Below are positions 1,272 through 40,718 of a stretch of 64,000 bases of DNA, in pieces; the stretch's first letter is position 1, and the number at the start of each line of letters is the position of its first letter. Source of the stretch: an uncultured Gammaproteobacteria bacterium (GTDB taxonomy: Bacteria > Pseudomonadota > Gammaproteobacteria > DATFLG01); the NCBI GenBank assembly GCA_964571225.1, contig CAZNBB010000002.1:7421-71420 (forward strand), in the 5' to 3' direction. The notes beneath the pieces were generated by a model. That model searched no databases, was not told the origin of the DNA, and was given only the letters and a program-made list of their open reading frames with translations. The translations under genes and the position numbers were made by a program.

Positions 1272-2183
1272 TCACTCCGGCCGAACAATGGCATGGCCAC
1301 CGAACGCGTTGCGCATGGTGGCGAGCAGGCGATTAGCGTAGCCTTCCTGGTCCTGACTTGCGAAGCGCATGGCCAGGGCCAGGGTCATCACCGGCGTGGC
1401 AACACCCTGATCGATTGCCTCCACGGCCGTCCAGCGCCCTTCGCCGGAATCGGCCACCACCGGCGCCACGTCGGTCAGTTCCTGGTCGTCCCGCAACGCG
1501 TCGGCCGTCAGGTCCAGCAGCCAGCTGCGCACCACCGAACCATGGCGCCAAAGCTCCGAAACCTGGGCCAGATCCAGCTCGAACTCGGATTTGCCCCGCA
1601 ACAGCGCAAGCCCTTCGGCCAGGGCTTGCATCATTCCGTACTCGATGCCGTTGTGCACCATCTTGGTGAAATGGCCCGCACCCACCGGACCGACGTGGGC
1701 CCAGCCGCGATCCGGCGCCGGCGCCAGCGCCTTCAGCGCCGGCTCCAGAAGCTCTAGTGCCTGTCGATCCCCACCGGCCATCACGCAGTAGCCTTCGGCG
1801 AGCCCCCAGATGCCGCCGGACACCCCGGCGTCGACGAACTGGATATCGCGTTTGGCCAGCAATGCGCCGCGCCGCTGGCTGTCGTGGTAGTTCGCATTGC
1901 CTCCGTCCACCACGATGTCGCCCGCAGAGAGCAGTTCCGACAAGGTTTCCACATGCTGTTCCGTCACCGCGCCCGCCGGTAGCATCAGCCACAGGATACG
2001 CGGCGCTTTCAGTTGTTCCACGGCGTCGGCCAGGGACTGGGCGGCGATCAATCCTTCTTCGGCTGCCAACGTACCAACAATGTCGGCACTGCGGTTATAA
2101 CCCACCACTTCGATTCCGCTGCGGCACAGACGCCGCGCCATATTGGCGCCCATGCGGCCCAACCCCACCATTGCCATTCGCAT
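1272..2183 (-). CDS. gnd: 6-phosphogluconate dehydrogenase (decarboxylating), short-form Gnd-like NAD(P)-binding enzyme
   Basis: MRMAMVGLGRMGANMARRL Rossmann N-terminus and a 6PGDH-like body (GHFTKMVHNGIEYGMMQ). Start chosen at the conserved N-terminus rather than the longer ORF start at 2354. It lies adjacent to zwf. Confidence 0.8.
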   Translation of the reverse strand: MRMAMVGLGRMGANMARRLCRSGIEVVGYNRSADIVGTLAAEEGLIAAQSLADAVEQLKAPRILWLMLPAGAVTEQHVETLSELLSAGDIVVDGGNANYHDSQRRGALLAKRDIQFVDAGVSGGIWGLAEGYCVMAGGDRQALELLEPALKALAPAPDRGWAHVGPVGAGHFTKMVHNGIEYGMMQALAEGLALLRGKSEFELDLAQVSELWRHGSVVRSWLLDLTADALRDDQELTDVAPVVADSGEGRWTAVEAIDQGVATPVMTLALAMRFASQDQEGYANRLLATMRNAFGGHAIVRPE

Positions 2184-2405
2184 TGCGTGTCTCCCTAGTG
2201 TGGTGCTGCGGATTTGATAAAGCGCTGCGGAGAAGCAAACCTCCTGTTGCGACAGAGCATGCCACCGTCCCGCGCACGCTGGGGGAAGTATAGACACCAA
2301 GCATCGCGCGAGGCCAACCACGGCGCCTTGACGTGCCATGGCACGTTGCCGCACCCTTTTGCGTCTGACCTTCCCACGAAGCCCTCGAGAAACGGCAGAT
2401 TCCGG

Positions 2406-3872
2406 ATGAATGTATTATTCGCCACCAGCGAAGCGCACCCGCTTGTGAAGACCGGCGGCCTGGCTGACGTTTGCGGAAGTCTGCCCCACGCCCTGGGCGA
2501 AATGGGGCAGGATGTACGCCTGGTGCTGCCGGCGTATCCGCAGGCTCGCGAGCGGGCCTGGGACGTACGCACCGTCGCCACCTTGACGCTGCCCTATGTG
2601 CCGGAGCCGGTCACCGTGCTGGAAGGACGATTGCCCGATTCGTCCGTGCCCGTGTATCTGGTGGACTACCCGCTCTACTTCGAGCGCCCCGGCAATCCGT
2701 ACGTCACTCCGGACGGGGTGGACTGGCCCGACAATGCGCAGCGCTTTGCCTGCTTTGCGCGCGCAGCGGTGGCAATCGCGCTGGATCGCGCGGGCCTGGA
2801 CTGGCGCGCCGATGTTGTCCACTGCCACGATTGGCAAAGCGGTCTGGTACCGGCGCTGCTGAGCGAGGAACACCGCCGTCCTGCAACGGTATTCACCATC
2901 CACAACCTCTCGTACCAGGGATTGTTCGACTGGGCCACCTTCCAGTCCCTCAACCTGCCATACAAATGGTGGGTCATGGACGGCCTGGAGTTCTTTTCCC
3001 ACATGTCCTTCATCAAAGGTGGACTGGTGTTTTCCGACTGGCTGACCACCGTCAGCCCCACCTACGCCCGGGAAATCGCTACGCCTGAATTCGGTTGCGG
3101 TCTACAGGGCCTGCTGAGCCATCGGGCGGACCGTCTGGAAGGCATACTGAACGGCGTGGACTACGACGTCTGGGACCCGGCCCACGATGCGCTGATCGCC
3201 CGGCCCTACGATGCCGGCTCCCTGGAAGGCAAAGCCGCCAACAAGACCGAGTTGCAGAAGCGCTTCGATCTGCCCGTCAACGCAAACACGCCTCTGCTGG
3301 CCCATGTGGGACGGCTGGTCGAGCAGAAGGGCATCGATCTGCTGCTTGGTATCCTGCCGGAGCTGGCCCGGCGCGACATGCAGCTCGTACTGCTGGGCAG
3401 CGGGCAGAAGGCGCTGGAGGATGCGGTGCGCTCGGCCCGCAAAGAGTATCCTCAGCGCATCGGCGTCATGATCGGCTACGACGAATCGCTGGCTCACCTG
3501 GTAGAGGCGGGTGCCGATGGTTTTCTCATGCCCTCACGTTTCGAGCCGTGCGGACTGAACCAGATCTACAGCCTGCGCTACGGCACTGCACCGATCGTCC
3601 GGCGCACCGGGGGGCTGGCCGACACCGTGGTCGACGCCGACGCTTTCAATCTGCAGGAAGGGCTGGCCACCGGTTTCGTGTTCGACGATGCGACACCGCA
3701 AGCCCTGCTGGCCGCTATCGACCGCGCCCTGATCCTGCATGGCAACGCCGATGCGTGGCGACGGCTGATCACCGCCGGTATGGCTCAGGATTTCAGCTGG
3801 ACGCGAAGTGCCGAACGCTACCTGGACCTGTATCGCCGGGCGCTGGAATCCGCCGCGGTCACGTCCGCTTAG
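2406..3872 (+). CDS. glgA: Glycogen synthase (ADP-glucose transglucosylase)
   Basis: MNVLFATSEAHPLVKTGGLADV... (KTGGL motif), 489 aa from the internal ATG at 2406. The ORF-track start at 2214 is an upstream extension. Confidence 0.9.
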   Translation: MNVLFATSEAHPLVKTGGLADVCGSLPHALGEMGQDVRLVLPAYPQARERAWDVRTVATLTLPYVPEPVTVLEGRLPDSSVPVYLVDYPLYFERPGNPYVTPDGVDWPDNAQRFACFARAAVAIALDRAGLDWRADVVHCHDWQSGLVPALLSEEHRRPATVFTIHNLSYQGLFDWATFQSLNLPYKWWVMDGLEFFSHMSFIKGGLVFSDWLTTVSPTYAREIATPEFGCGLQGLLSHRADRLEGILNGVDYDVWDPAHDALIARPYDAGSLEGKAANKTELQKRFDLPVNANTPLLAHVGRLVEQKGIDLLLGILPELARRDMQLVLLGSGQKALEDAVRSARKEYPQRIGVMIGYDESLAHLVEAGADGFLMPSRFEPCGLNQIYSLRYGTAPIVRRTGGLADTVVDADAFNLQEGLATGFVFDDATPQALLAAIDRALILHGNADAWRRLITAGMAQDFSWTRSAERYLDLYRRALESAAVTSA

Positions 3873-4021
3873 CCGGGAATTCACGCTCCTTCATGGCAGC
3901 ATCGGTGCCTGCCATCCATTTCCCGCCAGGCGCGCGACCGACGACCGGCGCTGCCACCGAAATTCGAGGCCCAACCGGGCTTTGATATCAGCCCCCTAGG
4001 CAAGCGGGCACCCGGACGGGT

Positions 4022-4027
4022 TATAAT
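4022..4027 (+). promoter_or_regulatory. Candidate sigma70 -10 element (TTATAAT) about 48 nt upstream of the ppc start
   Basis: Near-consensus TATAAT in a GC-rich background, with a weak -35-like TAGGCA 19 nt upstream. By eye only. Confidence 0.25.
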
Positions 4028-4074
4028 TGTGGTCCCTTGGCCCTGTATGCCGCGTCTCCATCGTGGCTTTTTTT

Positions 4075-6930
4075 ATGTCTATGTCACCGAAGCGCAAAGA
4101 AAACCTGGGAGTCGAGCCGCCGCCGCGGGATAAGGAACTGCGGGCCAGGGTGCGATTGTTCGGCAACCTGCTCGGGAATGTGTTGCGGGACCAGGCCGGC
4201 GGCAAGGTCCTCGCGGCCGTCGAAGCACTGCGCAAGGGGTATATCCGGCTGCGCCAGGAGGAAAGCCCCCGCCTGCGCCTGCGGTTGGCCACCATGATCG
4301 AACGTCTCGAACCCGATGTTCTTACCCATGTGGTGCGGGCTTTCAACGTCTACTTCAGCTTGGTGAACATCGCCGAGGAAGCTTTCCAGCATCGTCAGCG
4401 CCGACGTGCCATCCGCTCCGGCGGTCCCCTGTGGCGAGGCTCCTTCGACGACACACTGCGGGAGTTCAACACCGAGGACATGAATCGCGAGCAGCTGCAG
4501 AGTCTGCTCGACCAGACCTGCTACGTGCCGGTCTTCACGGCCCACCCCACAGAATCCAAACGCCGCACCATTATGGAGGCACTGCGGCGCATTTTCGTGA
4601 CCAGCGAGCAGTTGTACGACGCGCGTCTCAACAAGGAAGAGCGCGAACAGGTCATCGACGATCTGCGCACGCAGATCCAGATTCTCTGGAAGACCGACGA
4701 AGTCCGCATCCACCGCCCGCGGGTGCGGGACGAAATCCGCAACGGCCTGTTCTATTTTCGCGAAAGTCTGTTTACCGCCGTGCCGGCCACCTATCGCAAC
4801 CTGGAAAAAGCGATGGCGCGCATTTACGGCGCCGGCCCAGACGGAGCCTCGGCCATCAAGGTGCCCAGCATGCTGCGCTTCGGCTCCTGGATCGGAGGCG
4901 ATCGCGACGGCAACCCGAACGTCAAACCGGAAACCACAGTGCTCGCACTGCGCCTGCAGATGCGCGAAGCGCTGTGCGAATACCTGCGTCGCACCGAGGC
5001 GCTGGGTCATCTGCTGACCCACTCGATCTTGCTGTGCCAGCCATCCGACGCCCTGCTGGCCAGCATCCAGGCCGACGAGGAACGTTTCCCGAAGGCCTTC
5101 GGAGACCATCCGCGACGCTTCAGCCACGAGCCCTATCGACGCAAGCTCTACGTCATGCGCTACCGGCTGCGCCAGAACCTGCGCGAAGTGATCCGGCTGC
5201 TGGACGAGCAGGACAATCCTGCCCAGGGCAGCACCGACCACCGTTACCGATCGGAAGCGGAACTGCTGGAAGAGCTCTACCTGATCCGCGACTCGCTGCG
5301 CCAGCATGGCGACGAAAAGGTCGCCGACCGGGAGCTGAAAGACCTGATCCGGCTGGTGGAGACCTTCGGCTTCTATCTCATGCAACTGGATATCCGCCAG
5401 GAATCCACCCGCCATACCGAGGCGGTTGCCGAGTTGCTTTCTCGTTTTCCCGGCGCACTGGACTATCAGGCCATGGACGAAGACGAGCGCGTGCGGGCGC
5501 TTGCCGACGCGATTGCAGCCCAGGAGACCCCGGACCTGGATCGCAGTTCGCTGGACACTCGCACCCGCGAGACCCTGGAAGTCTTCGATGTCATGCGGCG
5601 CATGCGCGAGGATGTCAGCCCGCGCGCATTCGGCACCTACGTCATATCCATGACCCACAGCGCAAGTCACGTGCTGGAAGTGATGTTCCTGGCACGTCTC
5701 GCCGGACTGGTGGGAAAGACCGCCGACGGCTGGTCGTGCCAGATCCAGGTCAGCCCGTTGTTCGAGACCATTGAGGACCTCGCCCATGTCGAGCAGGTAC
5801 TGACGCGGCTGCTCGACACCCCCGTGTACCGGGCCCTGCTGGCCGCATCGGGCAACTTGCAGGAAGTCATGCTCGGCTATTCGGATTCGTGCAAGGACGG
5901 CGGCATTCTGGCCTCGGCCTGGAACCTGTACGAGGCCCAGAAGAAGATCATCAAGATCACCGAGGAGCGCGGCATTGACTGCCGCCTGTTCCACGGCCGC
6001 GGCGGCACCATCGGGCGAGGCGGCGGACCGACCCACGAGTCCATCCTCGCGCAGCCCCCCGGGACGGTGCACGGTCAGATCAAGTTCACCGAGCAGGGCG
6101 AAGTGCTGTCGTACAAGTACAGCAATGCGGAAACGGCCATCTATGAGCTGACCATGGGCCTGACCGGGCTGCTCAAGGCCAGTCGCAGCATCGTGCAGCC
6201 GGCGGGACCGGACCGTAAGGACTACCTGGGCATCATGGACGAGCTTGCGCGGCTGGGCGAAGAGGCCTATCGCGACCTCACCGACCGCACCGAGGGCTTC
6301 CTGGATTACTTCTACGAAGTGGCGCCGGTCAACGAAATCGCGCTGCTGAACATCGGCTCGCGGCCTTCCCATCGGGCTCGCGCCGACCGTTCGAAATCCT
6401 CCATCCGGGCCATACCCTGGGTGTTCGGCTGGGCCCAATCACGCCACACGCTGCCGGCCTGGTACGGGCTGGGCTACGCCCTCGAAACCTGGCGCGGCAA
6501 CAGTCCCGAACGGCTGGCGAAGCTGCAGACCATGTACCGGGAATGGCCGTTCTTCCGCGCTCTGCTAAGCAACACGCAGATGTCGCTTTTCAAGGCCGAG
6601 ATGAACACCGCGTGGGAATACGCCAGCACCCTGGCCAAGGACGCCGAGTCCGCCGGACAGATATACCGACGGATCCGAGACGAATATCAGCGCACGCTGA
6701 CCCAGGTATTGAACGTAGCCCACACGCAGGTGCTGCTGGAGGAAAATCCGGCCCTGTTTCTGTCGCTGTCACGGCGCAATCCCTACCTGGACCCGCTCAA
6801 CCACATTCAACTGGTACTGCTCAAGCGTTACCGGGATACGGTGGTACCGGAGGAGCAGCGCGAACACTGGCGCGATCCCTTGCTGCGCTCGATCAACGCC
6901 ATCGCCGGCGGGCAGCGCAATACCGGCTGA
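4075..6930 (+). CDS. ppc: Phosphoenolpyruvate carboxylase
   Basis: 951 aa. VPVFTAHPTE motif, FHGRGGTIGRGGGP active-site loop, and C-terminal ...GQRNTG. Start at MSMSPKRKEN. Confidence 0.93.
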   Translation: MSMSPKRKENLGVEPPPRDKELRARVRLFGNLLGNVLRDQAGGKVLAAVEALRKGYIRLRQEESPRLRLRLATMIERLEPDVLTHVVRAFNVYFSLVNIAEEAFQHRQRRRAIRSGGPLWRGSFDDTLREFNTEDMNREQLQSLLDQTCYVPVFTAHPTESKRRTIMEALRRIFVTSEQLYDARLNKEEREQVIDDLRTQIQILWKTDEVRIHRPRVRDEIRNGLFYFRESLFTAVPATYRNLEKAMARIYGAGPDGASAIKVPSMLRFGSWIGGDRDGNPNVKPETTVLALRLQMREALCEYLRRTEALGHLLTHSILLCQPSDALLASIQADEERFPKAFGDHPRRFSHEPYRRKLYVMRYRLRQNLREVIRLLDEQDNPAQGSTDHRYRSEAELLEELYLIRDSLRQHGDEKVADRELKDLIRLVETFGFYLMQLDIRQESTRHTEAVAELLSRFPGALDYQAMDEDERVRALADAIAAQETPDLDRSSLDTRTRETLEVFDVMRRMREDVSPRAFGTYVISMTHSASHVLEVMFLARLAGLVGKTADGWSCQIQVSPLFETIEDLAHVEQVLTRLLDTPVYRALLAASGNLQEVMLGYSDSCKDGGILASAWNLYEAQKKIIKITEERGIDCRLFHGRGGTIGRGGGPTHESILAQPPGTVHGQIKFTEQGEVLSYKYSNAETAIYELTMGLTGLLKASRSIVQPAGPDRKDYLGIMDELARLGEEAYRDLTDRTEGFLDYFYEVAPVNEIALLNIGSRPSHRARADRSKSSIRAIPWVFGWAQSRHTLPAWYGLGYALETWRGNSPERLAKLQTMYREWPFFRALLSNTQMSLFKAEMNTAWEYASTLAKDAESAGQIYRRIRDEYQRTLTQVLNVAHTQVLLEENPALFLSLSRRNPYLDPLNHIQLVLLKRYRDTVVPEEQREHWRDPLLRSINAIAGGQRNTG

Positions 6931-11752: not shown

Positions 11753-11828
11753 GCTCCCATCGTCTAGCGGTCCAGGACGTCGCCCTCTCACGGCGAAAAC
11801 CGGGGTTCGATTCCCCGTGGGAGCGCCA
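11753..11828 (+). tRNA. tRNA-Glu (anticodon CUC)
   Basis: A 76-nt cloverleaf: GCTCCCA acceptor stem, anticodon loop CTCTCAC, GGTTCGATTCC T-arm and a 3' GCCA. Close to the E. coli tRNA-Glu scaffold. Confidence 0.85.
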
Positions 11829-12126
11829 TTCCCGCCGCTTCGGAAGCGCCCGGCGACCGACGTCCACATGGCGCCCCGGGCGCAGAACCACGGCCGGCAA
11901 TCCGGCCTCGGCCCACAGCCCTGCTTCCCCGCAACCCTATGGCGACATGTTGAGCCGGTTCACGTCGGTGGCAACCCGTCCCCTGAGAAGGGTACCGGAT
12001 ACCCGACTCGCGATCCGGCCACCACCGGCTAAAACCGGGGCTGGCTTGGGGGCTTCAACCGCCGGTACAATTCTCATTTTTGTCAGATCGCAGCCCGCCT
12101 TCAGGCCGGGCCGCCGGTGAACCGTA

Positions 12127-13854
12127 ATGTCGAGAACTGACCACGAGCAGGCCACTGGGGCATCGCCGGCCCCCGACCGCGGCCATTGGCTGCGCGATCT
12201 GTTGCTGCTGACGCTGCTGCTGGGTCTGTATCTCGGGTTCCAGATGGGCCAGCGGGCGATATGGAACCCGGACGAAGGTCGGTATTCCGAAATACCCCGC
12301 GAAATGGTGGTCAGCGGCAATTACGTCACCCCCCACCTGGACGGGGTCAAGTATTTCGAGAAGCCGCCCCTGTTCTACTGGCTGCAGGCTGCCTCCATAA
12401 AGGTATTCGGCCTCCATCAGTGGGACCTGCGCCTTTGGCCCGTCCTGTTCGCCCTGTTCGGCAGTCTGATGGTGTACGGGGCGGGGCGCCAGATGTTCGG
12501 GCGACGCGCCGGACTGCTGTCGGCCATGGTGCTGGCCACCAGCCTGCTCTACTACTTTCTGGGACGGGCCATCATCCTGGACATGGCCGTTTCCATTCTG
12601 ATGGCAGCGGCCATGCTGACCTTCCTGCTGGGCGTACGCGGGCCGCCGGGGCCGACCCGGCGAAACTATCTCTGGGCCTTCTACGTCTTCATGGCGCTGG
12701 CCACTCTCACCAAGGGCCTGATCGGCATCGCGCTGCCGGGATTGGTCATCCTTGTGTGGATGGCTTTGCTCAACGAATGGCGTCTGCTGCGCAGCATCTA
12801 CCTGCCCTCCGGACTGCTGATCTATCTGGTGGTGGCCACGCCGTGGCACGTGCTGGTGAGCATCGCCAATCCGGAGTTCCCCTACTTCTATTTCATCCAG
12901 CAACAGTTCCTGCGCTATCTGACCATGAGTGCGCACCGCTACCAGCCGGACTGGTTCTTCATCCCCATCCTGCTGCTGGGCATGGTGCCCTGGACTGTTT
13001 TCATGTTCCAGGCTGTATGGAAGGGCCTGCCCGAATCCTGGGGCCGGCGCAAAGAGCACAAGGAAACGCTGTTCCTCGTGCTGTGGGCAGTGCTGATCTT
13101 CGTGTTCTTCTCCCTGTCGAAGTCCAAGCTGGTGCCCTACATCCTGCCTATCTTTCCGGCCCTCGCCCTGCTGATCGGGCGCTGGCTGGCGCAACAACCC
13201 GCCGCCGGCGCGGTGCGCCGCCCCCTGGCCGTGCTGGCACTGCTGGGCCTGGCCGGGGCGGTTGCCATCGCTATGCTGCCCAACGGACTGGCGCGAAGCC
13301 ACAGCGCGCTGGAGTTCAACCGCATGGTGGGCACTTCGCAGATCTACCTGATGGCGGTAGTGCTGGCCGTTGCCAGCATTGTCCCCTATCTGCTGGCCCG
13401 CCGGGCCCGGCTGGATGTCGCGCTGGTCAGCATGGCGGTGCTGTTCGGAGGGTTTCACACCGTGGTGGGCCACGCGCTGACCGGCCTCGATCCGAAATGG
13501 TCGGTGCGAGCCATGGCCGAGATGATAAAGCCGGAGCTGAAGCCGGACGATGCGGTGGTGACCTATAACACCTACTTCCAGGAACTGCCGGTGTATTTGC
13601 AGCGCCGGGTGATTATCGTCAACTGGAAGAACGAGTTGACCTTCGGCTCAAAATACCAGGACACCAGCGGTTGGATGATTGACACGGCCCAGTTCTGGAA
13701 GCTGTGGAACAGCGACCGCGCAGTCTACGTGTTCGCCAATGCCGGAGACTATCAGCAACTGGTCGAAGGCGCCCACGGACGCTACCGCGTGCTGGCCCGC
13801 AATGCCTACCATGTGCTGCTCACCAACCAGCCGGCCGGCGCCGGTCCACACTGA
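12127..13854 (+). CDS. arnT: Undecaprenyl phosphate-alpha-4-amino-4-deoxy-L-arabinose arabinosyl transferase (GT family 39/83, ArnT-like)
   Basis: 575 aa polytopic protein. N-terminal ...RAIWNPDEGRYSEIPREMVVSGNYVTPHLDGVKYFEKPPLFYWL is the ArnT/PMT family signature loop. Context with arnBCAD supports the call. Confidence 0.8.
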   Translation: MSRTDHEQATGASPAPDRGHWLRDLLLLTLLLGLYLGFQMGQRAIWNPDEGRYSEIPREMVVSGNYVTPHLDGVKYFEKPPLFYWLQAASIKVFGLHQWDLRLWPVLFALFGSLMVYGAGRQMFGRRAGLLSAMVLATSLLYYFLGRAIILDMAVSILMAAAMLTFLLGVRGPPGPTRRNYLWAFYVFMALATLTKGLIGIALPGLVILVWMALLNEWRLLRSIYLPSGLLIYLVVATPWHVLVSIANPEFPYFYFIQQQFLRYLTMSAHRYQPDWFFIPILLLGMVPWTVFMFQAVWKGLPESWGRRKEHKETLFLVLWAVLIFVFFSLSKSKLVPYILPIFPALALLIGRWLAQQPAAGAVRRPLAVLALLGLAGAVAIAMLPNGLARSHSALEFNRMVGTSQIYLMAVVLAVASIVPYLLARRARLDVALVSMAVLFGGFHTVVGHALTGLDPKWSVRAMAEMIKPELKPDDAVVTYNTYFQELPVYLQRRVIIVNWKNELTFGSKYQDTSGWMIDTAQFWKLWNSDRAVYVFANAGDYQQLVEGAHGRYRVLARNAYHVLLTNQPAGAGPH

Positions 13855-13870
13855 GGAGCAGCCCAGCGCC

Positions 13871-15028
13871 ATGAGCGACGAGTTCCTGCCCTTCTCACGC
13901 CCATCCATCAGCCGCGCCGCCATCGAGGAAGTGGTCGCCTGTCTGGAGTCCGGCTGGATCACCACCGGCCCAAGGGTCAAGCGCTTCGAGGAAGCCCTTG
14001 CCGGCTATCTGGGAGCGCCCCGCGTGCTCGCCCTGTCATCAGCGACCGCGGGCCTGCATCTGGCGCTGCTGGCGCTGGACCTGCAGGACGGCGACGAAGT
14101 CATCACCACGCCGCTGACCTTCGCCGCGACTCTCAACACCATCGTGCTGGCGGGCGCCAGGCCGGTGCTGGTGGATGTGGATCCGCATACCTTCAACATT
14201 GATGTGTCGCGCCTGGCTGACGCCATCAACGAACGCACCCGGGCCATCGTGCCCGTGCATTTCGCGGGCCTGCCGGTGGACCTGGATCCGCTCTACGCGC
14301 TGGCGCAGGAACGCAACCTGCGGGTCATCGAAGACGCAGCCCACGCCATCGGCACCGAGTACAAGGGCCGGCGCATCGGGTCGTTCGGCGACACCCAGGT
14401 GTTCAGTTTCCATCCCAACAAGAACATGACCACCGGCGAGGGCGGCTGCATCACCACCCGCGACGACGAGCTGGCGGACAAGGTGGCGCTGCTGCGCTTC
14501 CACGGCATGGACCGTGAAGCCTGGAACCGGTTCGGCAAGACCGGCAGCCAGCACTACGAAATCATCATGCCCGGCTACAAGTACAACATGATGGACATGC
14601 AGGCCGCTCTGGGGCTGCATCAACTGCCCGAGCTGGATGGTTTCATCGCCCGGCGCACCGAACTGGCGCAGCGCTACCAGCGCGCTTTCGATGGGTGGCC
14701 GCAGCTCGCACTGCCCGCCGCTCCGGCCTATCCCTGCCGTCATGCATGGCATCTGTACACGCCCCTGATCGACCCGCAAGCGGCCGGTATGGACCGGGAC
14801 GCATTCATGGCGGCCATGAAATCCCGTAACATCGGGACCGGACTGCATTATCGAGCGGTGCACCTGTATCCGTATTATCGCGAGCACTTCGGCTTCGCAG
14901 CGGGCGATTTCCCGACTGCCGAACGCATCGGCGATCGCATCGTCAGTCTGCCCCTGTTTCCCGGCATGACCGATGCCGATCAGGATCGCGTGATCGCCGC
15001 CATGTCCGGGATTTTCGCAAAGAGCTGA
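13871..15028 (+). CDS. arnB: UDP-4-amino-4-deoxy-L-arabinose--oxoglutarate aminotransferase (DegT/DnrJ/EryC1 family)
   Basis: MSDEFLPFSRPSI...SGWITTGPRVKRFEE...FSFHPNKNMTTGEGG (PLP-lysine region). 385 aa from the internal ATG. The track ORF start at 13679 overlaps arnT. Confidence 0.88.
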   Translation: MSDEFLPFSRPSISRAAIEEVVACLESGWITTGPRVKRFEEALAGYLGAPRVLALSSATAGLHLALLALDLQDGDEVITTPLTFAATLNTIVLAGARPVLVDVDPHTFNIDVSRLADAINERTRAIVPVHFAGLPVDLDPLYALAQERNLRVIEDAAHAIGTEYKGRRIGSFGDTQVFSFHPNKNMTTGEGGCITTRDDELADKVALLRFHGMDREAWNRFGKTGSQHYEIIMPGYKYNMMDMQAALGLHQLPELDGFIARRTELAQRYQRAFDGWPQLALPAAPAYPCRHAWHLYTPLIDPQAAGMDRDAFMAAMKSRNIGTGLHYRAVHLYPYYREHFGFAAGDFPTAERIGDRIVSLPLFPGMTDADQDRVIAAMSGIFAKS

Positions 15029-15031
15029 ACC

Positions 15032-15970
15032 ATGCATCCGTACCTGAGCATCGTCGTACCCGTCTACAACGAACAGGATAACCTGCAGCCCCTGTTCGAC
15101 CGCCTGACCGCCACCCTGGACGCGCTGGACAAGCCCTACGAGATCTGGTTCACCAACGACGGCAGCCGCGACCGTTCCGGCATGCTGTTGGCGCAGTTTC
15201 ACGAACAAAGGCCTCACCAGGTACGGGTCATCGAGTTCAACGGCAACTTCGGTCAGCACCAGGCCATCATGGCGGCCTTCGAGCGGGTACGGGGCGAGGT
15301 GGTGGTGACCCTGGATGCCGATCTGCAGAACCCGCCGGAGGAGATACCCAGGCTGGTCGCGCAGATCGAGGCCGGCCACGACGTGGTTGGGGGCTATCGG
15401 CGGGCCCGTCAGGACACCTGGTTCCGACGCTATGCGTCACGGGCCATAAACCGTGTCAGGGAACACACCACCCATATCCGTATGCGCGACCAGGGCTGCA
15501 TGCTGCGCGCCTATCGACGGGAAGTGGTGGACTGCATCGTACGAACCGGAGAGCGTTCCACCTTCATCCCCGCCCTGGCCCTGAGCTTCTCCAGCCACCC
15601 CACTGAAGTGGAAGTGGCCCATGCCGCCCGCGCGGCCGGAACGTCCAAGTACAGTCTGTACAAGTTGATCCGCCTGAACTTCGACCTGATGACCGGGTTT
15701 TCGCTGGTGCCGCTGCAGATATTCACCATGTTCGGGATGCTGGTCGCCCTGATGAGCGGGCTGTTCGTGTTTTACCTGGCCATCCGCCGGCTGGTGGTGG
15801 GGCCTGAAGCCCAGGGCGTGTTCACCCTGCTGGCCATCCTGTTCTTCCTGGTGGGCATCGTGATCTTCGGCCTTGGGGTGATCGGAGAGTACGTGGGCAG
15901 AATCTACGAACAGGTGCGCAACCGCCCCGGTTTCATGATCCGCACGGTGCTGGAGAAACCCGATGAATGA
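15032..15970 (+). CDS. arnC: Undecaprenyl-phosphate 4-deoxy-4-formamido-L-arabinose transferase (GT2)
   Basis: MHPYLSIVVPVYNEQDNL...TNDGSRD...LDADLQNPPEE (GT2 DxD) plus C-terminal TM helices. 312 aa. Confidence 0.88.
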   Translation: MHPYLSIVVPVYNEQDNLQPLFDRLTATLDALDKPYEIWFTNDGSRDRSGMLLAQFHEQRPHQVRVIEFNGNFGQHQAIMAAFERVRGEVVVTLDADLQNPPEEIPRLVAQIEAGHDVVGGYRRARQDTWFRRYASRAINRVREHTTHIRMRDQGCMLRAYRREVVDCIVRTGERSTFIPALALSFSSHPTEVEVAHAARAAGTSKYSLYKLIRLNFDLMTGFSLVPLQIFTMFGMLVALMSGLFVFYLAIRRLVVGPEAQGVFTLLAILFFLVGIVIFGLGVIGEYVGRIYEQVRNRPGFMIRTVLEKPDE

Positions 15971-16910
15971 AGCGGGCGGCACCCCGCGGGTCCTGGTGTT
16001 CGCCTACCAGGACGTGGGGTATGTCTGCCTGCAGGAACTGATCTGCCGCGGGGTACGGCCGGCGGCCGTATTCACCCACGCGGACGCCGCCGGGGAAAAC
16101 ATCTGGTTCCGCTCGGTGGCGGCACTGGCCGCTGCCCATGACATCGCCGTTCATACACCGGCGTCCGTGAACACGCCGCAATGGACCCAGCGCATCCGCG
16201 ACCTGCAGCCCGATCTGCTGCTGTCGTTCTATTACCGGGATCTCATCGGCACGGCCATCGTCGACATGCCGGCCCTGGGCGCATACAACCTGCACGGCTC
16301 ACTGCTGCCAAAGTACCGGGGACGGGCGCCGGTGAACTGGGCGCTGGTGTTCGGCGAAACGCAAACCGGCGTCACCCTGCACCGCATGGTGGCACGGGCG
16401 GACGCCGGAGACATTGTCGACCAGGAACCGGTAGCCATCGGTCCCGCGGACAGCATCCGCGAGGTCTACGACGGCATCGTGGGTGCGGCAAGGAAGGTCA
16501 TCGCCCGCCAGCTGGACGACCTGCTGAACGGCCGGGTGCGATCCCGCCCCCAGGACGAGGCCGGCGCCACCGTGGTCAAAGGCCGGCGGCCGGACGACGG
16601 GCGCATCGACTGGCGGTGCGACGCACATACGGTCTTCAACCTGGTACGGGCGGTCACCCACCCCTACCCCGGCGCATTTACAGAGGTCGGAGACCGCCGC
16701 TTCTATATCTGGTGGGCCGAACCCGTTGACCAAGATGGGGCCGGCACCGAACCCGGCGAAGTGACCGGGACGGCACCGCTATGCATCGCCTGCGGCCGGG
16801 GCAGCCTGCGGGTACGGCAGTGGCAATGGGAAAATGACCGCCAACGGCGTTCCGACGAACGATTCGATGCGGGTCTGCGCATCGGTCAGCGCCTGGGCAA
16901 CTTTTTTTGA
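15963..16910 (+). CDS. arnA: UDP-L-Ara4N formyltransferase; the ArnA N-terminal domain encoded as a stand-alone gene
   Basis: Aligns along its length to the E. coli ArnA formyltransferase domain (VLVFAYQDVGY, SFYYRDLI, NLHGSLLPKYRGRAPVNWALVFGE, HRMVARADAGDIV). It ends where the E. coli inter-domain linker lies. Its start overlaps the arnC stop (ATGAATGA). Confidence 0.85.
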   Translation: MNEAGGTPRVLVFAYQDVGYVCLQELICRGVRPAAVFTHADAAGENIWFRSVAALAAAHDIAVHTPASVNTPQWTQRIRDLQPDLLLSFYYRDLIGTAIVDMPALGAYNLHGSLLPKYRGRAPVNWALVFGETQTGVTLHRMVARADAGDIVDQEPVAIGPADSIREVYDGIVGAARKVIARQLDDLLNGRVRSRPQDEAGATVVKGRRPDDGRIDWRCDAHTVFNLVRAVTHPYPGAFTEVGDRRFYIWWAEPVDQDGAGTEPGEVTGTAPLCIACGRGSLRVRQWQWENDRQRRSDERFDAGLRIGQRLGNFF

Positions 16911-16940
16911 ACGACAGCACCCCTGGAGGGCGTCACACCA

Positions 16941-17987
16941 ATGAAGATCCTGATTCTCGGCGTTAATGGTTTCATCGGCAACAGCCTGACCGAGCGGATA
17001 CTGAAGGAGCGGGACTGGGAGGTCTACGGAATGGACATGGCCTGTGACAAGCTCGGCGAGAGCCTGGGCCACGACCGCTTCCATTTCGTCGAGGGCGATA
17101 TCACCATCAATCGGGAATGGATCGAGTATCACGTCAAGAAGTGCGACGTCGTGCTGCCCTTGGTGGCCATCGCCACACCCGCCACCTATGTTCAGGATCC
17201 GCTGCGGGTGTTCGAGCTGGACTTCGAGGCGAACCTGGACATCGTGCGTCAGTGCGTACGCTACGGCAAGCGGGTGCTGTTCCCCTCCACCTCCGAAGTC
17301 TACGGGATGTGCCCCGACAGTCAGTTCGACGAGGAAAACTCGAACCTGGTACTGGGCCCCATCCACAAGCAGCGCTGGATCTACTCCTGCTCCAAACAGC
17401 TTCTGGACAGGGTCATCTATGCATACGGCCAGCAACATGGTCTGCGTTTCACCCTGTTCCGTCCGTTCAACTGGATCGGCCCGAAGCTGGACGACGTGCT
17501 CGAGCCCAAGGAAGGCAGCTCCCGTGTGCTGACCCAGTTCATCAGCAATATTCTGCACGGCAAGGATATTCTGCTGGTGGACGGCGGCAGCCAGCGGCGC
17601 AGCTTCACCTATATCGACGACGGCATCGACGCCCTGCTCCGCATCATCGAGAACCAGGACAACTGTGCCGAAGGCCGTATCTTCAACATCGGCAATCCGG
17701 CCAACGACATGTCGGTGAAGGACCTTGCCGAAACCCTGGTCAGGCTGATACGCGAGTATCCCCAGTGGAGCGAACGGGCGGACAAGGTCCGGCTGGTCAC
17801 CACCGAATCGGAAAGCTACTACGGCAGCGGCTATCAGGACATCATGACCCGCGTCCCGTCCATCGAAAACGCCAAGCGCCATCTGGGCTGGTCGCCGAAG
17901 ATCGACCTGGAGACGGCCTTGCGCAAGACGCTGGACTATTACTCACGGCAGGCCGACACCGGGGGCTCGGATAGCACCGCGCAATGA
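16941..17987 (+). CDS. arnA: UDP-glucuronic acid oxidative decarboxylase; the ArnA C-terminal dehydrogenase domain as a separate gene
   Basis: MKILILGVNGFIGNSLTERILKE...HFVEGDI...FPSTSEVYGMC...YSCSKQLLDRV match the E. coli ArnA C-domain almost motif-for-motif. 348 aa. Confidence 0.88.
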   Translation: MKILILGVNGFIGNSLTERILKERDWEVYGMDMACDKLGESLGHDRFHFVEGDITINREWIEYHVKKCDVVLPLVAIATPATYVQDPLRVFELDFEANLDIVRQCVRYGKRVLFPSTSEVYGMCPDSQFDEENSNLVLGPIHKQRWIYSCSKQLLDRVIYAYGQQHGLRFTLFRPFNWIGPKLDDVLEPKEGSSRVLTQFISNILHGKDILLVDGGSQRRSFTYIDDGIDALLRIIENQDNCAEGRIFNIGNPANDMSVKDLAETLVRLIREYPQWSERADKVRLVTTESESYYGSGYQDIMTRVPSIENAKRHLGWSPKIDLETALRKTLDYYSRQADTGGSDSTAQ

Positions 17988-18937
17988 CCCAGCCACAGCT
18001 CGCCATCAAGGTCGACGTGGATACCGAGCGGGGCACCCGTATCGGCGTCCCGAATCTGGTGGCGTTGCTGGAGCGGCTGGGAATTCAGGCGACTTTCCTG
18101 TTCTCCCTGGGGCCGGACAATACGGGCCGGGCCATCAAGCGCATCTTCCGGCCCGGCTTCTTCGGCAAGGTGGTACGCACCAGCGTGGTCAGCACCTACG
18201 GACTGCGCACCCTCATGAACGGCGTACTGCTGCCGGGTCCCCACATAGGACGCCGCCACGGCGCATTGATGCGGTCCGTCAGGGACGCGGGCCATGAGGT
18301 GGGGATCCATTGCTACGACCACATCCGTTGGCAGGATGGTCTGGCCCGCATGAGACCCGACCAGGTGGTCGCCGAACTGGGTAAGGCCCGACAGGAATTC
18401 GAACGCATATTCGCCGAGCCGGCCCGCACCGCGGGAGCGGCGGGCTGGCAGGCAAACGCGGCCAGTCTGTGCGCCTATGACGAGGCCGGTTTCAGCTACG
18501 CCAGCGACGCCCGCGGAAACGAGCCGTTCTTTCCCTGTGCCGGCGCCCGGCGCTACCGCACCCTGCAGATCCCCACCACTCTACCCACCCTGGACGAGTT
18601 GCTGGGGCGCCCCGAGTATCCGGAAACGCGCCTGGTACAGCACTACCTGGAAATGTTGAGCGGCGACCGGCTCAACGTGCTCACTGCCCATGCCGAGATC
18701 GAAGGCATGGCCAAACTCCAGCTGTTCGAGGACCTGCTGCAACAGGCTCGCGCCGCGGATGTGAGCTTCGTGCGCCTGGACCGCTACGCCGCCGCACGCC
18801 TGGCAAGTCCCGATGACATCCCCGCCTGCGAGCTGGTGGCGGGCACCGTGGACGGGCGTTCGGGAACCCTGGCGGTGCAGGGCCGCCCCTGCACCGACTC
18901 CGCGGATCACCAGCCGGCAGGCCTACCCGCCGGCTGA
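17984..18937 (+). CDS. arnD: 4-deoxy-4-formamido-L-arabinose-phosphoundecaprenol deformylase (NodB/polysaccharide deacetylase fold)
   Basis: MTQPQLAIKVDVDTERG...FLFSLGPDN...GHEVGIHCYDH. Its start overlaps the arnA-DH stop (ATGA). 317 aa. Confidence 0.82.
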   Translation: MTQPQLAIKVDVDTERGTRIGVPNLVALLERLGIQATFLFSLGPDNTGRAIKRIFRPGFFGKVVRTSVVSTYGLRTLMNGVLLPGPHIGRRHGALMRSVRDAGHEVGIHCYDHIRWQDGLARMRPDQVVAELGKARQEFERIFAEPARTAGAAGWQANAASLCAYDEAGFSYASDARGNEPFFPCAGARRYRTLQIPTTLPTLDELLGRPEYPETRLVQHYLEMLSGDRLNVLTAHAEIEGMAKLQLFEDLLQQARAADVSFVRLDRYAAARLASPDDIPACELVAGTVDGRSGTLAVQGRPCTDSADHQPAGLPAG

Positions 18938-18947
18938 ATGGCGCCTG

Positions 18948-19280
18948 TCAGTCATGGGCCACATCGGCCAGCTCGCCCATCACCTCGGTGACCGAGGCCT
19001 CGGCGTTGGCCACCAGGCAGACCACATTGCCCACGCTGCACACCGTGTTGTCCTTGCCGCGGACGATCCAGCCTCGCGGCGGAGTCCAGCCCCGGGTCTG
19101 GGTGAACATGGAAAGCTGGTCGGCGTTGCCCTGGACCATACGCTTATAGTCGTGGGCGAACTTGGCCAGCTTCACCATCTGCTCGTCGTCCAGCATCCCG
19201 TAACCCTGCACCAGCACTCCGTCGTCACGAAACTGACAAACCACAGCGACGCCGTCCAGGGCAAGCATTCTCTTGATCAT
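18948..19280 (-). CDS. Small hypothetical protein, paralog 3 of the tandem triplet
   Basis: 110 aa with an SD-like GGGGG before the ATG. Motifs VVCQFRDDGVL, RGWTPPRGWIVRGKDNTVC and a C-terminal part clearly alignable to paralog 1. Confidence 0.6.
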   Translation of the reverse strand: MIKRMLALDGVAVVCQFRDDGVLVQGYGMLDDEQMVKLAKFAHDYKRMVQGNADQLSMFTQTRGWTPPRGWIVRGKDNTVCSVGNVVCLVANAEASVTEVMGELADVAHD

Positions 19281-19289
19281 ACCGCCCCC

Positions 19290-19628
19290 TTACCCCGGCA
19301 AGGCGCCGTAGGCGGCCTGATAATCGGCCGCTTCATTGCGAAGCACGACCCCACGGTTGCCGCTGGCCACCGCCGACCAATCGAAACCGATCATGGTAAA
19401 GCCGTCGATTGGATAGAAGCCCTGGGCACCGGTCATCTTCTCCCAACCCCGTGCCTGCATGGTGGCAATGGAAATGTTGGCCACGCACACGTGGCACAGT
19501 AGATCCAGAGTATCGGGCGTCAAGTCGTTGCCCTCGGCAATGCGATGCTCGCGCAGCTCCCCGCGGTCGGAAAATTCGAACGCCGCCAGCGCTCCAGGCA
19601 ATTCCATCAACTGTTCAAGACTGCTCAT
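19290..19628 (-). CDS. Small hypothetical protein, paralog 2 of the tandem triplet
   Basis: 112 aa with a strong SD (GGGGAGGAATACCAATG). Motifs AAFEFSDRGEL and RGW are shared with the neighbours. Confidence 0.6.
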   Translation of the reverse strand: MSSLEQLMELPGALAAFEFSDRGELREHRIAEGNDLTPDTLDLLCHVCVANISIATMQARGWEKMTGAQGFYPIDGFTMIGFDWSAVASGNRGVVLRNEAADYQAAYGALPG

Positions 19629-19661
19629 TGGTATTCCTCCCCGTCCCCTTGCCTTCTTCGC

Positions 19662-20018
19662 TCAGACGATCGCCTCGATGTCGGCCAGCCGCCGGTACAT
19701 GAGCCCGATGATGTCGTTCATGGACGCATTGGCGTTGTCCAGAAAGCAGAACACGTTGGCCATCACGCACACCGTGAACTTGGGACCGCGCACCACCCAG
19801 CCCCGCGAGGGCGTGAACGCGCACTGGTCACCGCAGTATGCGCCGAGAATGTCCGCCTGCATGTGCACACCCATGGTCGTTGCGCGGCACATGATGGACG
19901 CCATTCGCGCCTGTTCCTCGTCGAGCTGCCCCTTGTAGGTAAAGCGGTCGCCGCGATAGGAATACTCGCCTGCCGCAAACACCCCTTTCAGATTGGAAAG
20001 TTCAGCAACGATTGACAT
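19662..20018 (-). CDS. Small hypothetical protein, paralog 1 of a tandem triplet (possible Roadblock/LC7-like or DUF2173-type fold)
   Basis: 118 aa with its own SD (GGAGTGGAGGTGAAATG). Shares motifs with the next two ORFs (AAGEYSYRGDRF, RGW..RG, TVC..N..C..A.A). Confidence 0.6.
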   Translation of the reverse strand: MSIVAELSNLKGVFAAGEYSYRGDRFTYKGQLDEEQARMASIMCRATTMGVHMQADILGAYCGDQCAFTPSRGWVVRGPKFTVCVMANVFCFLDNANASMNDIIGLMYRRLADIEAIV

Positions 20019-39887: not shown

Positions 39888-40718
39888 TCACAGATACCAC
39901 CACGCGAGAGCGGCCAGCCCCATCGCGGCGCAATAGAATCCGAACGGACGCAGCGCCTTCACTTCGTGGGTATTGAAGTAGCGCATCAGTATCCACGTGC
40001 TCAGGTACGCACAGACGCCGGCAACAACGCCTGCACCGAAGACCGTGCCGACCTGCATGTGGGCATGAGCCCGAAACAGCTTCGGCACCTCCAGCAGGCC
40101 GGCTGCACCGATGATGGGCGTCGCCAGCAGGAACGAAAAACGTGCCGAGGCACCATAGTCCAGGCCGTTGGCCAGGCCGGCAACCAGCGTAACGCCGGAG
40201 CGCGACATGCCGGGGATCAAGGCGAGCGATTGCGCAAACCCGATCAGCAGCGCGCGACCCCAGCCCATGGTCTCCAGTTGCCGGCTGTTGGGGGTGCGGC
40301 GCTTGAGTGCGTCGCCGGCAAACAGCACGAAACCATTCAGGACCAGGAATACCGCCACTACCGTAAGACTGCCGAACAGCAGCCTGAGTTTCTTCTCCAG
40401 AGCCAACCCCAACAGCCCTGCCGGCACGGTCGCCACCACCAGCAGCCAGAACAGCCGCGCATGGGCATTGGACGTGCCGCCGCGCGCGCGGATCACGCCG
40501 CCCAGCAGATCGCGCCAGTCACGCCAGAAATACAGCAGCAGGGCGCTGGCCGTACCCAGATGGAGTACCACGAGAAATGGCAGAAAATCCGGATTGTCGC
40601 GGTTGAGATCCCATCCCAGCATGATAGGCAGCAACACCCCGTGTCCGAGGCTGCTGATGGGAAACAACTCGGTAATACCCTGCATGACGGCGAACAGCAA
40701 TATATGTAGCTCGTTCAT
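39888..40718 (-). CDS. uppP: Undecaprenyl-diphosphate phosphatase
   Basis: 276 aa. MNELHILLFAVMQGITELFPISSLGHGVLLP (the BacA signature). Confidence 0.92.
   Translation of the reverse strand: MNELHILLFAVMQGITELFPISSLGHGVLLPIMLGWDLNRDNPDFLPFLVVLHLGTASALLLYFWRDWRDLLGGVIRARGGTSNAHARLFWLLVVATVPAGLLGLALEKKLRLLFGSLTVVAVFLVLNGFVLFAGDALKRRTPNSRQLETMGWGRALLIGFAQSLALIPGMSRSGVTLVAGLANGLDYGASARFSFLLATPIIGAAGLLEVPKLFRAHAHMQVGTVFGAGVVAGVCAYLSTWILMRYFNTHEVKALRPFGFYCAAMGLAALAWWYL

Follow-up and report, generated by a model that had tools for sequence, protein, structure and literature searches.

A Burkholderia-Type arn Operon with a Two-Gene ArnA and No Adjacent SMR Gene in an Uncultured Gammaproteobacterium

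Introduction

Is an arn cluster, predicted to modify lipid A with 4-amino-4-deoxy-L-arabinose (L-Ara4N), misassembled, decaying or simply ordinary when its ArnA is divided between two genes and no flippase gene accompanies it? The question is raised by six tightly packed genes, arnT, arnB, and arnC followed by arnA1, arnA2, and arnD, found at positions 12127-18937 (+ strand) of a 64-kb stretch from the chromosome of an uncultured gammaproteobacterium, available at NCBI as a metagenome-assembled genome (MAG). This whole stretch is hereafter called the window, and it is the window that was covered by the searches for flippase genes and for ugd reported below. An earlier, sequence-only reading of this DNA had listed the same six genes in the same order and at the same positions, as Pfam and NCBIfam matches now corroborate, and had considered their organization unusual, a view that the comparison with relatives does not sustain.

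The window operon is here recognized as one further case of an uncultured gammaproteobacterium carrying the known Burkholderia-type arn operon, in a variant devoid of the adjacent SMR gene. In our assessment, it is very likely a complete and functional L-Ara4N lipid A operon of the Burkholderiales type, with an old two-gene ArnA, that has lost its SMR gene and has the flipping step provided in trans.

Gene Content of the Cluster

The intergenic spacings along the cluster are, in order, 16, 3, -8, 30, and -4 nt. Spacings of -8 to +30 nt fit a single transcription unit, and the six genes most likely form one transcript, which would start in the conserved ~100 nt located 5' of arnT.

The first gene, arnT (12127-13854, + strand, as all the others), encodes a predicted undecaprenyl-phosphate-L-Ara4N:lipid A transferase of the GT-C type (GT83/GT39-like), with 575 aa and ~10 predicted transmembrane (TM) segments. 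Its product contains the Pfam domains PMT_2, PMT, and Arnt_C (PF18583), has the ArnT model as its sole NCBIfam match (245 bits, with an equivalog cutoff of 567), and can be aligned over its entire length to 5EZM, the ArnT structure from Cupriavidus metallidurans (E = 1.3e-73), the PDEGRY and YFEKPP motifs being conserved. It is followed by arnB (13871-15028), for a pyridoxal phosphate-dependent UDP-4-keto-arabinose aminotransferase of 385 aa that matches Pfam DegT_DnrJ_EryC1 (E = 6e-131) and, as top NCBIfam model, ArnB (444 bits; cutoff 631). The start of arnB is the ATG at 13871, preceded by GAGGAG and situated 16 nt past the arnT stop; the mechanical ORF (open reading frame) start at 13679 is not the true one, and the 385-aa call is also made in independent assemblies. 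Next comes arnC (15032-15970), encoding a GT2 undecaprenyl-phosphate transferase with the Pfam domain Glycos_transf_2 and ArnC as top NCBIfam match (351 bits; cutoff 529).

The two ArnA activities are assigned to arnA1 (15963-16910, overlapping arnC by 8 nt) and arnA2 (16941-17987). The former encodes a stand-alone UDP-L-Ara4N N-formyltransferase of 315 aa, with Pfam Formyl_trans_N and Formyl_trans_C domains and ArnA N-terminal domains as PDB matches (E ~1e-77), and the latter a stand-alone NAD-dependent UDP-glucuronate C4-oxidase/decarboxylase of the short-chain dehydrogenase/reductase type, with 348 aa and a Pfam Epimerase domain. In the PDB, ArnA2 is best matched by PbgP3 (3SLG; E = 5e-151), a stand-alone protein that we take to be from Burkholderia pseudomallei and that outranks the E. 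coli ArnA C-terminal domain. Finally, arnD (17984-18937), overlapping arnA2 by 4 nt (ATGA), encodes a predicted undecaprenyl-phosphate-N-formyl-L-Ara4N (Ara4FN) deformylase of 317 aa, with Pfam Polysacc_deac_1 and ArnD as top NCBIfam match (250 bits; cutoff 382).

Upon alignment, the catalytic residues of E. coli ArnA have conserved equivalents in both proteins. For the formyltransferase these are N102, H104, and D140; for the decarboxylase they are T432, S433, E434, Y463, K467, and R619, to which the conserved GxxGxxG motif is added. Identities of the window proteins to those of E. coli K-12 (L083) are 48% for ArnB, 47% for ArnC, 51% for ArnA (across both ORFs), 30% for ArnT, and 35% for ArnD (over 295 aa). 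Domain, NCBIfam, and E. coli matches thus agree with the earlier claim that every cytoplasmic and periplasmic catalytic step of the pathway is encoded here.

ArnA Is Encoded by Two Genes

Alignment maps the ArnA break to residues ~308/309 of the E. coli protein, within its inter-domain linker, and the two ORFs do not overlap, just as had been described from the letters alone. At the junction (16908-16940, + strand), the TGA stop of arnA1 (16908-16910) is followed by a 30-nt spacer containing GGAGG, which lies 11 nt upstream of the ATG that arnA2 has as its own start. NCBIfam models for stand-alone proteins describe both products, ArnA1 scoring 369.5 bits with NF005414 (cutoff 316) and ArnA2 609 bits with NF008872 (cutoff 294). 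Both outscore the model for the fused ArnA, NF005998, whose 777-bit cutoff is reached by neither ORF.

Relatives were collected by scanning one genome per species for the decarboxylase, which yielded 80 loci (numbered with an L) from Acidiferrobacterales-like gammaproteobacteria, Nitrospirota, Geobacteraceae, Opitutaceae, other Verrucomicrobiota, alphaproteobacteria, and others. In the ~60 loci holding both genes, the formyltransferase and the decarboxylase are always separate ORFs, with a spacing that goes from a 4-nt overlap to >1 kb and with all three frame offsets represented, so that the common frame of arnA1 and arnA2 in the window is attributable to chance. A fused arnA was encountered only in enterobacteria, that is, in E. 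coli K-12 and annotated on Pantoea plasmids.

The nature of the junction allows two other explanations to be considered. The split might result from a mistake in sequencing or assembly (which the earlier reading had also contemplated for this junction) made at seven consecutive T, from a recent nonsense mutation, or from a pseudogene in the making, since both genes share one reading frame, only one TGA directly after the seven-T run plus 30 nt stand between them, and E. coli ArnA runs through the junction unbroken in tblastn alignments. However, two independent metagenome assemblies (JGI and Logan), whose alignments to the window are gapless and 99.9% identical, contain the exact ArnA1 protein and an identical junction, and the sister MAG GCA_035266965.1 (L084), which has 88.6% nucleotide identity to the window and shares its flanking genes, retains the TGA despite an interrupted T run. 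This, together with the start and GGAGG of arnA2, the better fit of the stand-alone models, the precedence of the stand-alone 3SLG over the E. coli ArnA domain among the PDB matches of ArnA2, the split found in all relatives with varying frames, and the low ratios of nonsynonymous to synonymous substitution rates (dN/dS) in both halves (0.19 and 0.045), leaves error or recent damage with next to no probability. Scarcely more credible is that partial read-through of the TGA yields a fused ArnA beside the two separate proteins. The shared frame, a linker (TTAPLEGVTP) of about the E. coli length, and a spacer identical at 30/30 positions in the sister MAG, versus 12/16 for the spacer between arnT and arnB, would agree with it. 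Nonetheless, a same frame is expected by chance in one third of cases, and about one third of the relatives show it; the conservation of the spacer is explained by the ribosome-binding site; read-through is impossible in those relatives whose genes overlap or are out of frame; and no selenocysteine insertion sequence (SECIS)-like element or read-through signal was seen, none having been looked for.

The two-gene ArnA is, in consequence, the normal and old state of a widespread cluster type, and is to be explained neither by an error nor by a fission of recent date. Of the two origins previously proposed, ancestral state or fission, a recent fission is therefore unlikely and the split is old, as all relatives examined have it with varying spacers and frames. 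Moreover, because the split form spans many phyla and the fused one was encountered only in enterobacteria, the comparison suggests that the fused ArnA may be the derived state.

Gene Order and Comparison with Known Systems

The order arnT-arnB-arnC-formyltransferase-decarboxylase-arnD occurs in 31 of the 34 related loci that hold all six genes, and it is also annotated on the Ralstonia solanacearum megaplasmid (L086) and on a plasmid of Variovorax sp. RA8 (L088). The Burkholderia side of the comparison rests on published papers, including those that cite Ortega et al. 2007, and on these Ralstonia and Variovorax sequences. Passages of PMC4993015 give the B. cenocepacia cluster as arnT, arnB, and arnC, then arnA1, arnA2, and BCAL1935, those of PMC3123600 treat Burkholderia arnA1 and arnA2 as two distinct genes that are both required, and the same cluster is covered in part of PMC5729917. 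The window thus shares with B. cenocepacia the initial arnT, the separate arnA1 and arnA2, and the final deformylase, both the arnT-first/arnD-last order and the separate formyltransferase and decarboxylase genes being the marks of the Burkholderiales type. It was only by taking the enterobacterial and pseudomonad layout as the sole reference that this organization appeared unusual. Burkholderia differs in that its pathway is reported to be essential and encoded in two transcriptional units; in the window, the close packing of the genes gives the appearance of a single one.

The window proteins are 39-62% identical to those of the Ralstonia locus. Among the Ralstonia and Variovorax clusters is the locus type of RsU4kpxs, a characterized Ralstonia decarboxylase (Gu et al. 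2010, as cited in PMC5607165) after which the curated decarboxylase model is named. Unlike the window, both clusters carry a gene of the SMR family (123-129 aa) between arnT and arnB. Compared with the enterobacterial and pseudomonad operon arnBCADTEF (pmrHFIJKLM), the enzymology is the same and the ArnA catalytic residues are all conserved, but that operon has a fused ArnA, places arnT after arnD and two SMR genes, arnE and arnF, after arnT, and is regulated via PmrA/PhoP. The six-gene layout is identical in Geobacter/Geomonas and Opitutaceae (e.g., L036 and L064), where the 2.5 kb around the cluster are likewise free of small SMR genes, their proteins being more distant from those of the window (67-71% identity for ArnA2 and 43-62% for ArnB).

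Some loci depart from the common order. The decarboxylase gene lies between arnT and arnB in L030, arnT is last in L058, and arnD precedes the decarboxylase gene in L077. Others, namely L018 (3656-8664), L054 (5817-11047), L021, L028, L042, and the partial L019 and L037, read arnT-(SMR gene)-arnB-arnC-decarboxylase, with neither formyltransferase gene nor arnD, and contain only unrelated genes up to 8-10 kb downstream; they may skip the formylation/deformylation cycle, or else both genes sit elsewhere in the genome. L009, from Muproteobacteria, contains an apparently frameshifted arnT-like gene (locus at 1422-6925) that shares 62% identity with the ArnT of the window, more than any other ArnT from beyond the window lineage. 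On its 3' side come an ORF of 537 aa and another arnT-like gene, which is divergent (30% identical), and then the SMR gene and arnB.

Proposed Pathway

Homology to the known systems of E. coli, Salmonella, and Burkholderia allows the following sequence of reactions to be proposed. UDP-glucuronate would be made by Ugd, whose gene was not found in the 64-kb window and would be located outside it. ArnA2 would carry out its oxidative decarboxylation to UDP-4-keto-arabinose, which ArnB would transaminate to UDP-L-Ara4N, the substrate for N-formylation by ArnA1. ArnC would then move Ara4FN onto undecaprenyl phosphate and ArnD would take off the formyl group. Once the lipid-linked sugar had been flipped to the periplasmic leaflet, ArnT would put L-Ara4N on the lipid A phosphates, giving a less negative surface with lower affinity for cationic peptides.

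The Missing Flippase Gene

In 24 related loci, arnT is separated from arnB (or arnC) by an ORF of 121 aa with 4 predicted TM segments, and this ORF is present in all the closest relatives with an adjacent arnT (L001-L007, L009, L012, and L014-L017). This small protein matches Pfam EamA and SMR, and a profile built from it detects E. coli ArnE (7e-16) and ArnF (5e-13), as well as the protein that Ralstonia and Variovorax encode at that position, where it is annotated as "SMR family transporter". The small gene is absent from both the window and the sister MAG, where arnT and arnB are only 16 nt apart. Neither does an arnE or arnF follow arnD, as noted before, and no ArnE, ArnF or SMR homologue was found in the 64 kb, either by tblastn with proteins from E. 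coli, Ralstonia, Variovorax, and the relatives or by hidden Markov model searches of ORFs of at least 70 aa. Among the small multi-TM ORFs of the window there is no SMR, EamA or GtrA candidate, only RDD, DUF423, and PLDc_N proteins; these were rejected as substitute flippases, none being a known glycolipid flippase.

The absence is shared by 18 of the 31 loci with the same order, essentially the Geobacter and Opitutaceae clades, and none of these has another small multi-TM ORF within 2.5 kb, save two with seemingly unrelated ones. The small SMR gene is thus a frequent but not universal feature of the cluster type, and its lack can no more be called unusual than the gene order. In a neighbor-joining tree of concatenated ArnB, ArnC, and ArnA2, the window and the sister MAG nest within the clade bearing the small gene, beside L006. 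Because of this position, the absence is best read as a secondary deletion by which the window lineage lost a small SMR/EamA-like gene from its place after arnT and before arnB. Geobacter and Opitutaceae fall in clades separate from the window, so that the gene is missing from them independently of this loss.

Wherever tested, deletion of arnE/F abolishes resistance. Polymyxin minimum inhibitory concentrations drop from >1000 to 1.6 µg/mL in Dickeya (PMC10632790) and from 1280 to 0.5 µg/mL in P. aeruginosa (PMC13552734), and in E. coli and Salmonella polymyxin resistance is lost without arnE/F (reviewed in PMC9574504). A substitute flippase is therefore expected in lineages devoid of them. In the window lineage, flipping is probably supplied in trans, because the remaining six genes are still under purifying selection; the source would be a relocated homologue or another polyprenyl-phosphate-sugar flippase. 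A bolder version, to which we give only tentative credence, is that the window lineage modifies with L-Ara4N without any SMR-type ArnE/F in its genome, as would, independently, the clusters of Geobacter and Opitutaceae, in which case a non-homologous or promiscuous flippase, or a membrane enzyme of the pathway, might perform the flipping.

Selection on the Cluster and Alternative Functions

Between the window and the sister MAG, dN/dS is 0.10 for arnT, 0.07 for arnB, 0.04 for arnC, 0.19 for arnA1, 0.045 for arnA2, and 0.15 for arnD, with a value of 0.055 for pcnB as housekeeping reference. As these values of 0.04-0.19 have accumulated since the divergence of two genomes that both lack the small gene, the arn pathway is being retained and is not decaying.

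This result bears on the possibility that loss of the dedicated flippase has left the cluster decaying or non-functional. The deletion phenotypes cited above (PMC10632790, PMC13552734, and PMC9574504) and the lack of an arnE/F homologue within the 64 kb would point that way, but none of the six ORFs is disrupted, their catalytic residues are conserved and their sequences constrained, and the entire Geobacter and Opitutaceae clades keep the cluster without the small gene, which makes decay very improbable. Just as improbable, to our judgment, is that the genes serve another product or acceptor, such as the supply of UDP-xylose or the glycosylation of the lipopolysaccharide core or of proteins in place of lipid A. 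ArnT does score under its equivalog cutoff, and Burkholderia ArnT is proposed to modify a core sugar too (PMC5377068). Nevertheless, the combination of aminotransferase, formyltransferase, undecaprenyl-phosphate transferase, deformylase, and an ArnT bearing Arnt_C is specific to the L-Ara4N route.

Several points weigh against the interpretation of the cluster as a complete and functional Burkholderiales-type operon. ArnT, ArnB, ArnC, and ArnD all fall under the NCBIfam equivalog cutoffs, the models being enterobacteria-trained, and both the enzyme activities and lipid A as acceptor are predicted from homology. A dedicated SMR-type flippase for undecaprenyl-phosphate-linked L-Ara4N was not identified within the window, an arn cluster devoid of arnE/F may work poorly unless a substitute exists, and the tree that places the loss within the window lineage is a neighbor-joining one without bootstrap support. 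Regulation adds to these reservations. Upstream of arnT, a strict sigma-70 scan found no promoter, a search for direct repeats found none, and the PmrA box that the sequence-only reading had suggested looking for does not appear there under the enterobacterial consensus (YTTAAK-N5-YTTAAK, with up to 2 mismatches), at variance with the PmrA/PhoP-controlled operons.

As a discovery, the operon carries little weight, being ordinary save for the loss of its flippase gene. For annotators, it illustrates that a split arnA or an arnT-first order is neither an anomaly nor an assembly error but the norm outside Enterobacterales and pseudomonads. Many arn clusters are devoid of an adjacent arnE/F-like gene, as that of the window is, yet the latter is under purifying selection, which fits poorly with the strict requirement seen in E. 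coli, Dickeya, and Pseudomonas and suggests that flipping admits more substitution than the textbook scheme would lead one to expect. Since the small gene was lost recently in the window lineage and kept in its nearest relatives, this lineage lends itself naturally to comparison with L006-like genomes, a pairing that would be useful for finding a substitute flippase if no ArnE/F were encoded anywhere in the genome.

Upstream Region and Genomic Context

The intergenic region preceding arnT (11829-12126, + strand) presumably contains the promoter and the 5' untranslated region. Its last ~100 nt before the arnT start (12020-12126) hardly differ from those of the sister MAG, while the distal part shows indels, and TACAAT at 12066-12071 is a candidate -10 element. 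No good -35 element accompanies it, an arrangement that would suit an activator-dependent promoter. Terminator-like matches occur only at the level of shuffled sequences.

The upstream neighbor, outside the operon, is a tRNA-Glu gene (anticodon CUC; 11753-11828, + strand) detected by ARAGORN and scoring 61.9 bits with the Rfam tRNA model. It ends 298 nt before the cluster, in line with the ~300 bp given earlier, and the same tRNA occupies the same place in the sister MAG. The anticodon is CUC instead of the usual bacterial UUC, and GC-rich inverted repeats follow at 11831-11883. A genomic island was considered and rejected, as the 3' end of the tRNA is not repeated in the window, GC content is flat, codon-position GC resembles that of the neighboring genes, and no integrase is nearby, the missing integrase and tRNA repeat having been remarked on before. 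The arn clusters of relatives sit in unrelated neighborhoods, and flanks are common only to the sister MAG, which shares with the window the context dNK-folK-pcnB-tRNA-Glu ... DUF2173.

On the downstream side, three tandem paralogous DUF2173 genes (110, 112, and 118 aa; 18948-20018, - strand) run convergently with arnD, whose stop codon is only 10 nt away from the DUF2173 one, and the sister MAG likewise has a DUF2173 gene past arnD. A gene for a BacA/UppP undecaprenyl-diphosphatase, relevant to lipid-carrier supply, is located at 39888-40718 (- strand), unlinked to the arn operon and 21 kb away from it.

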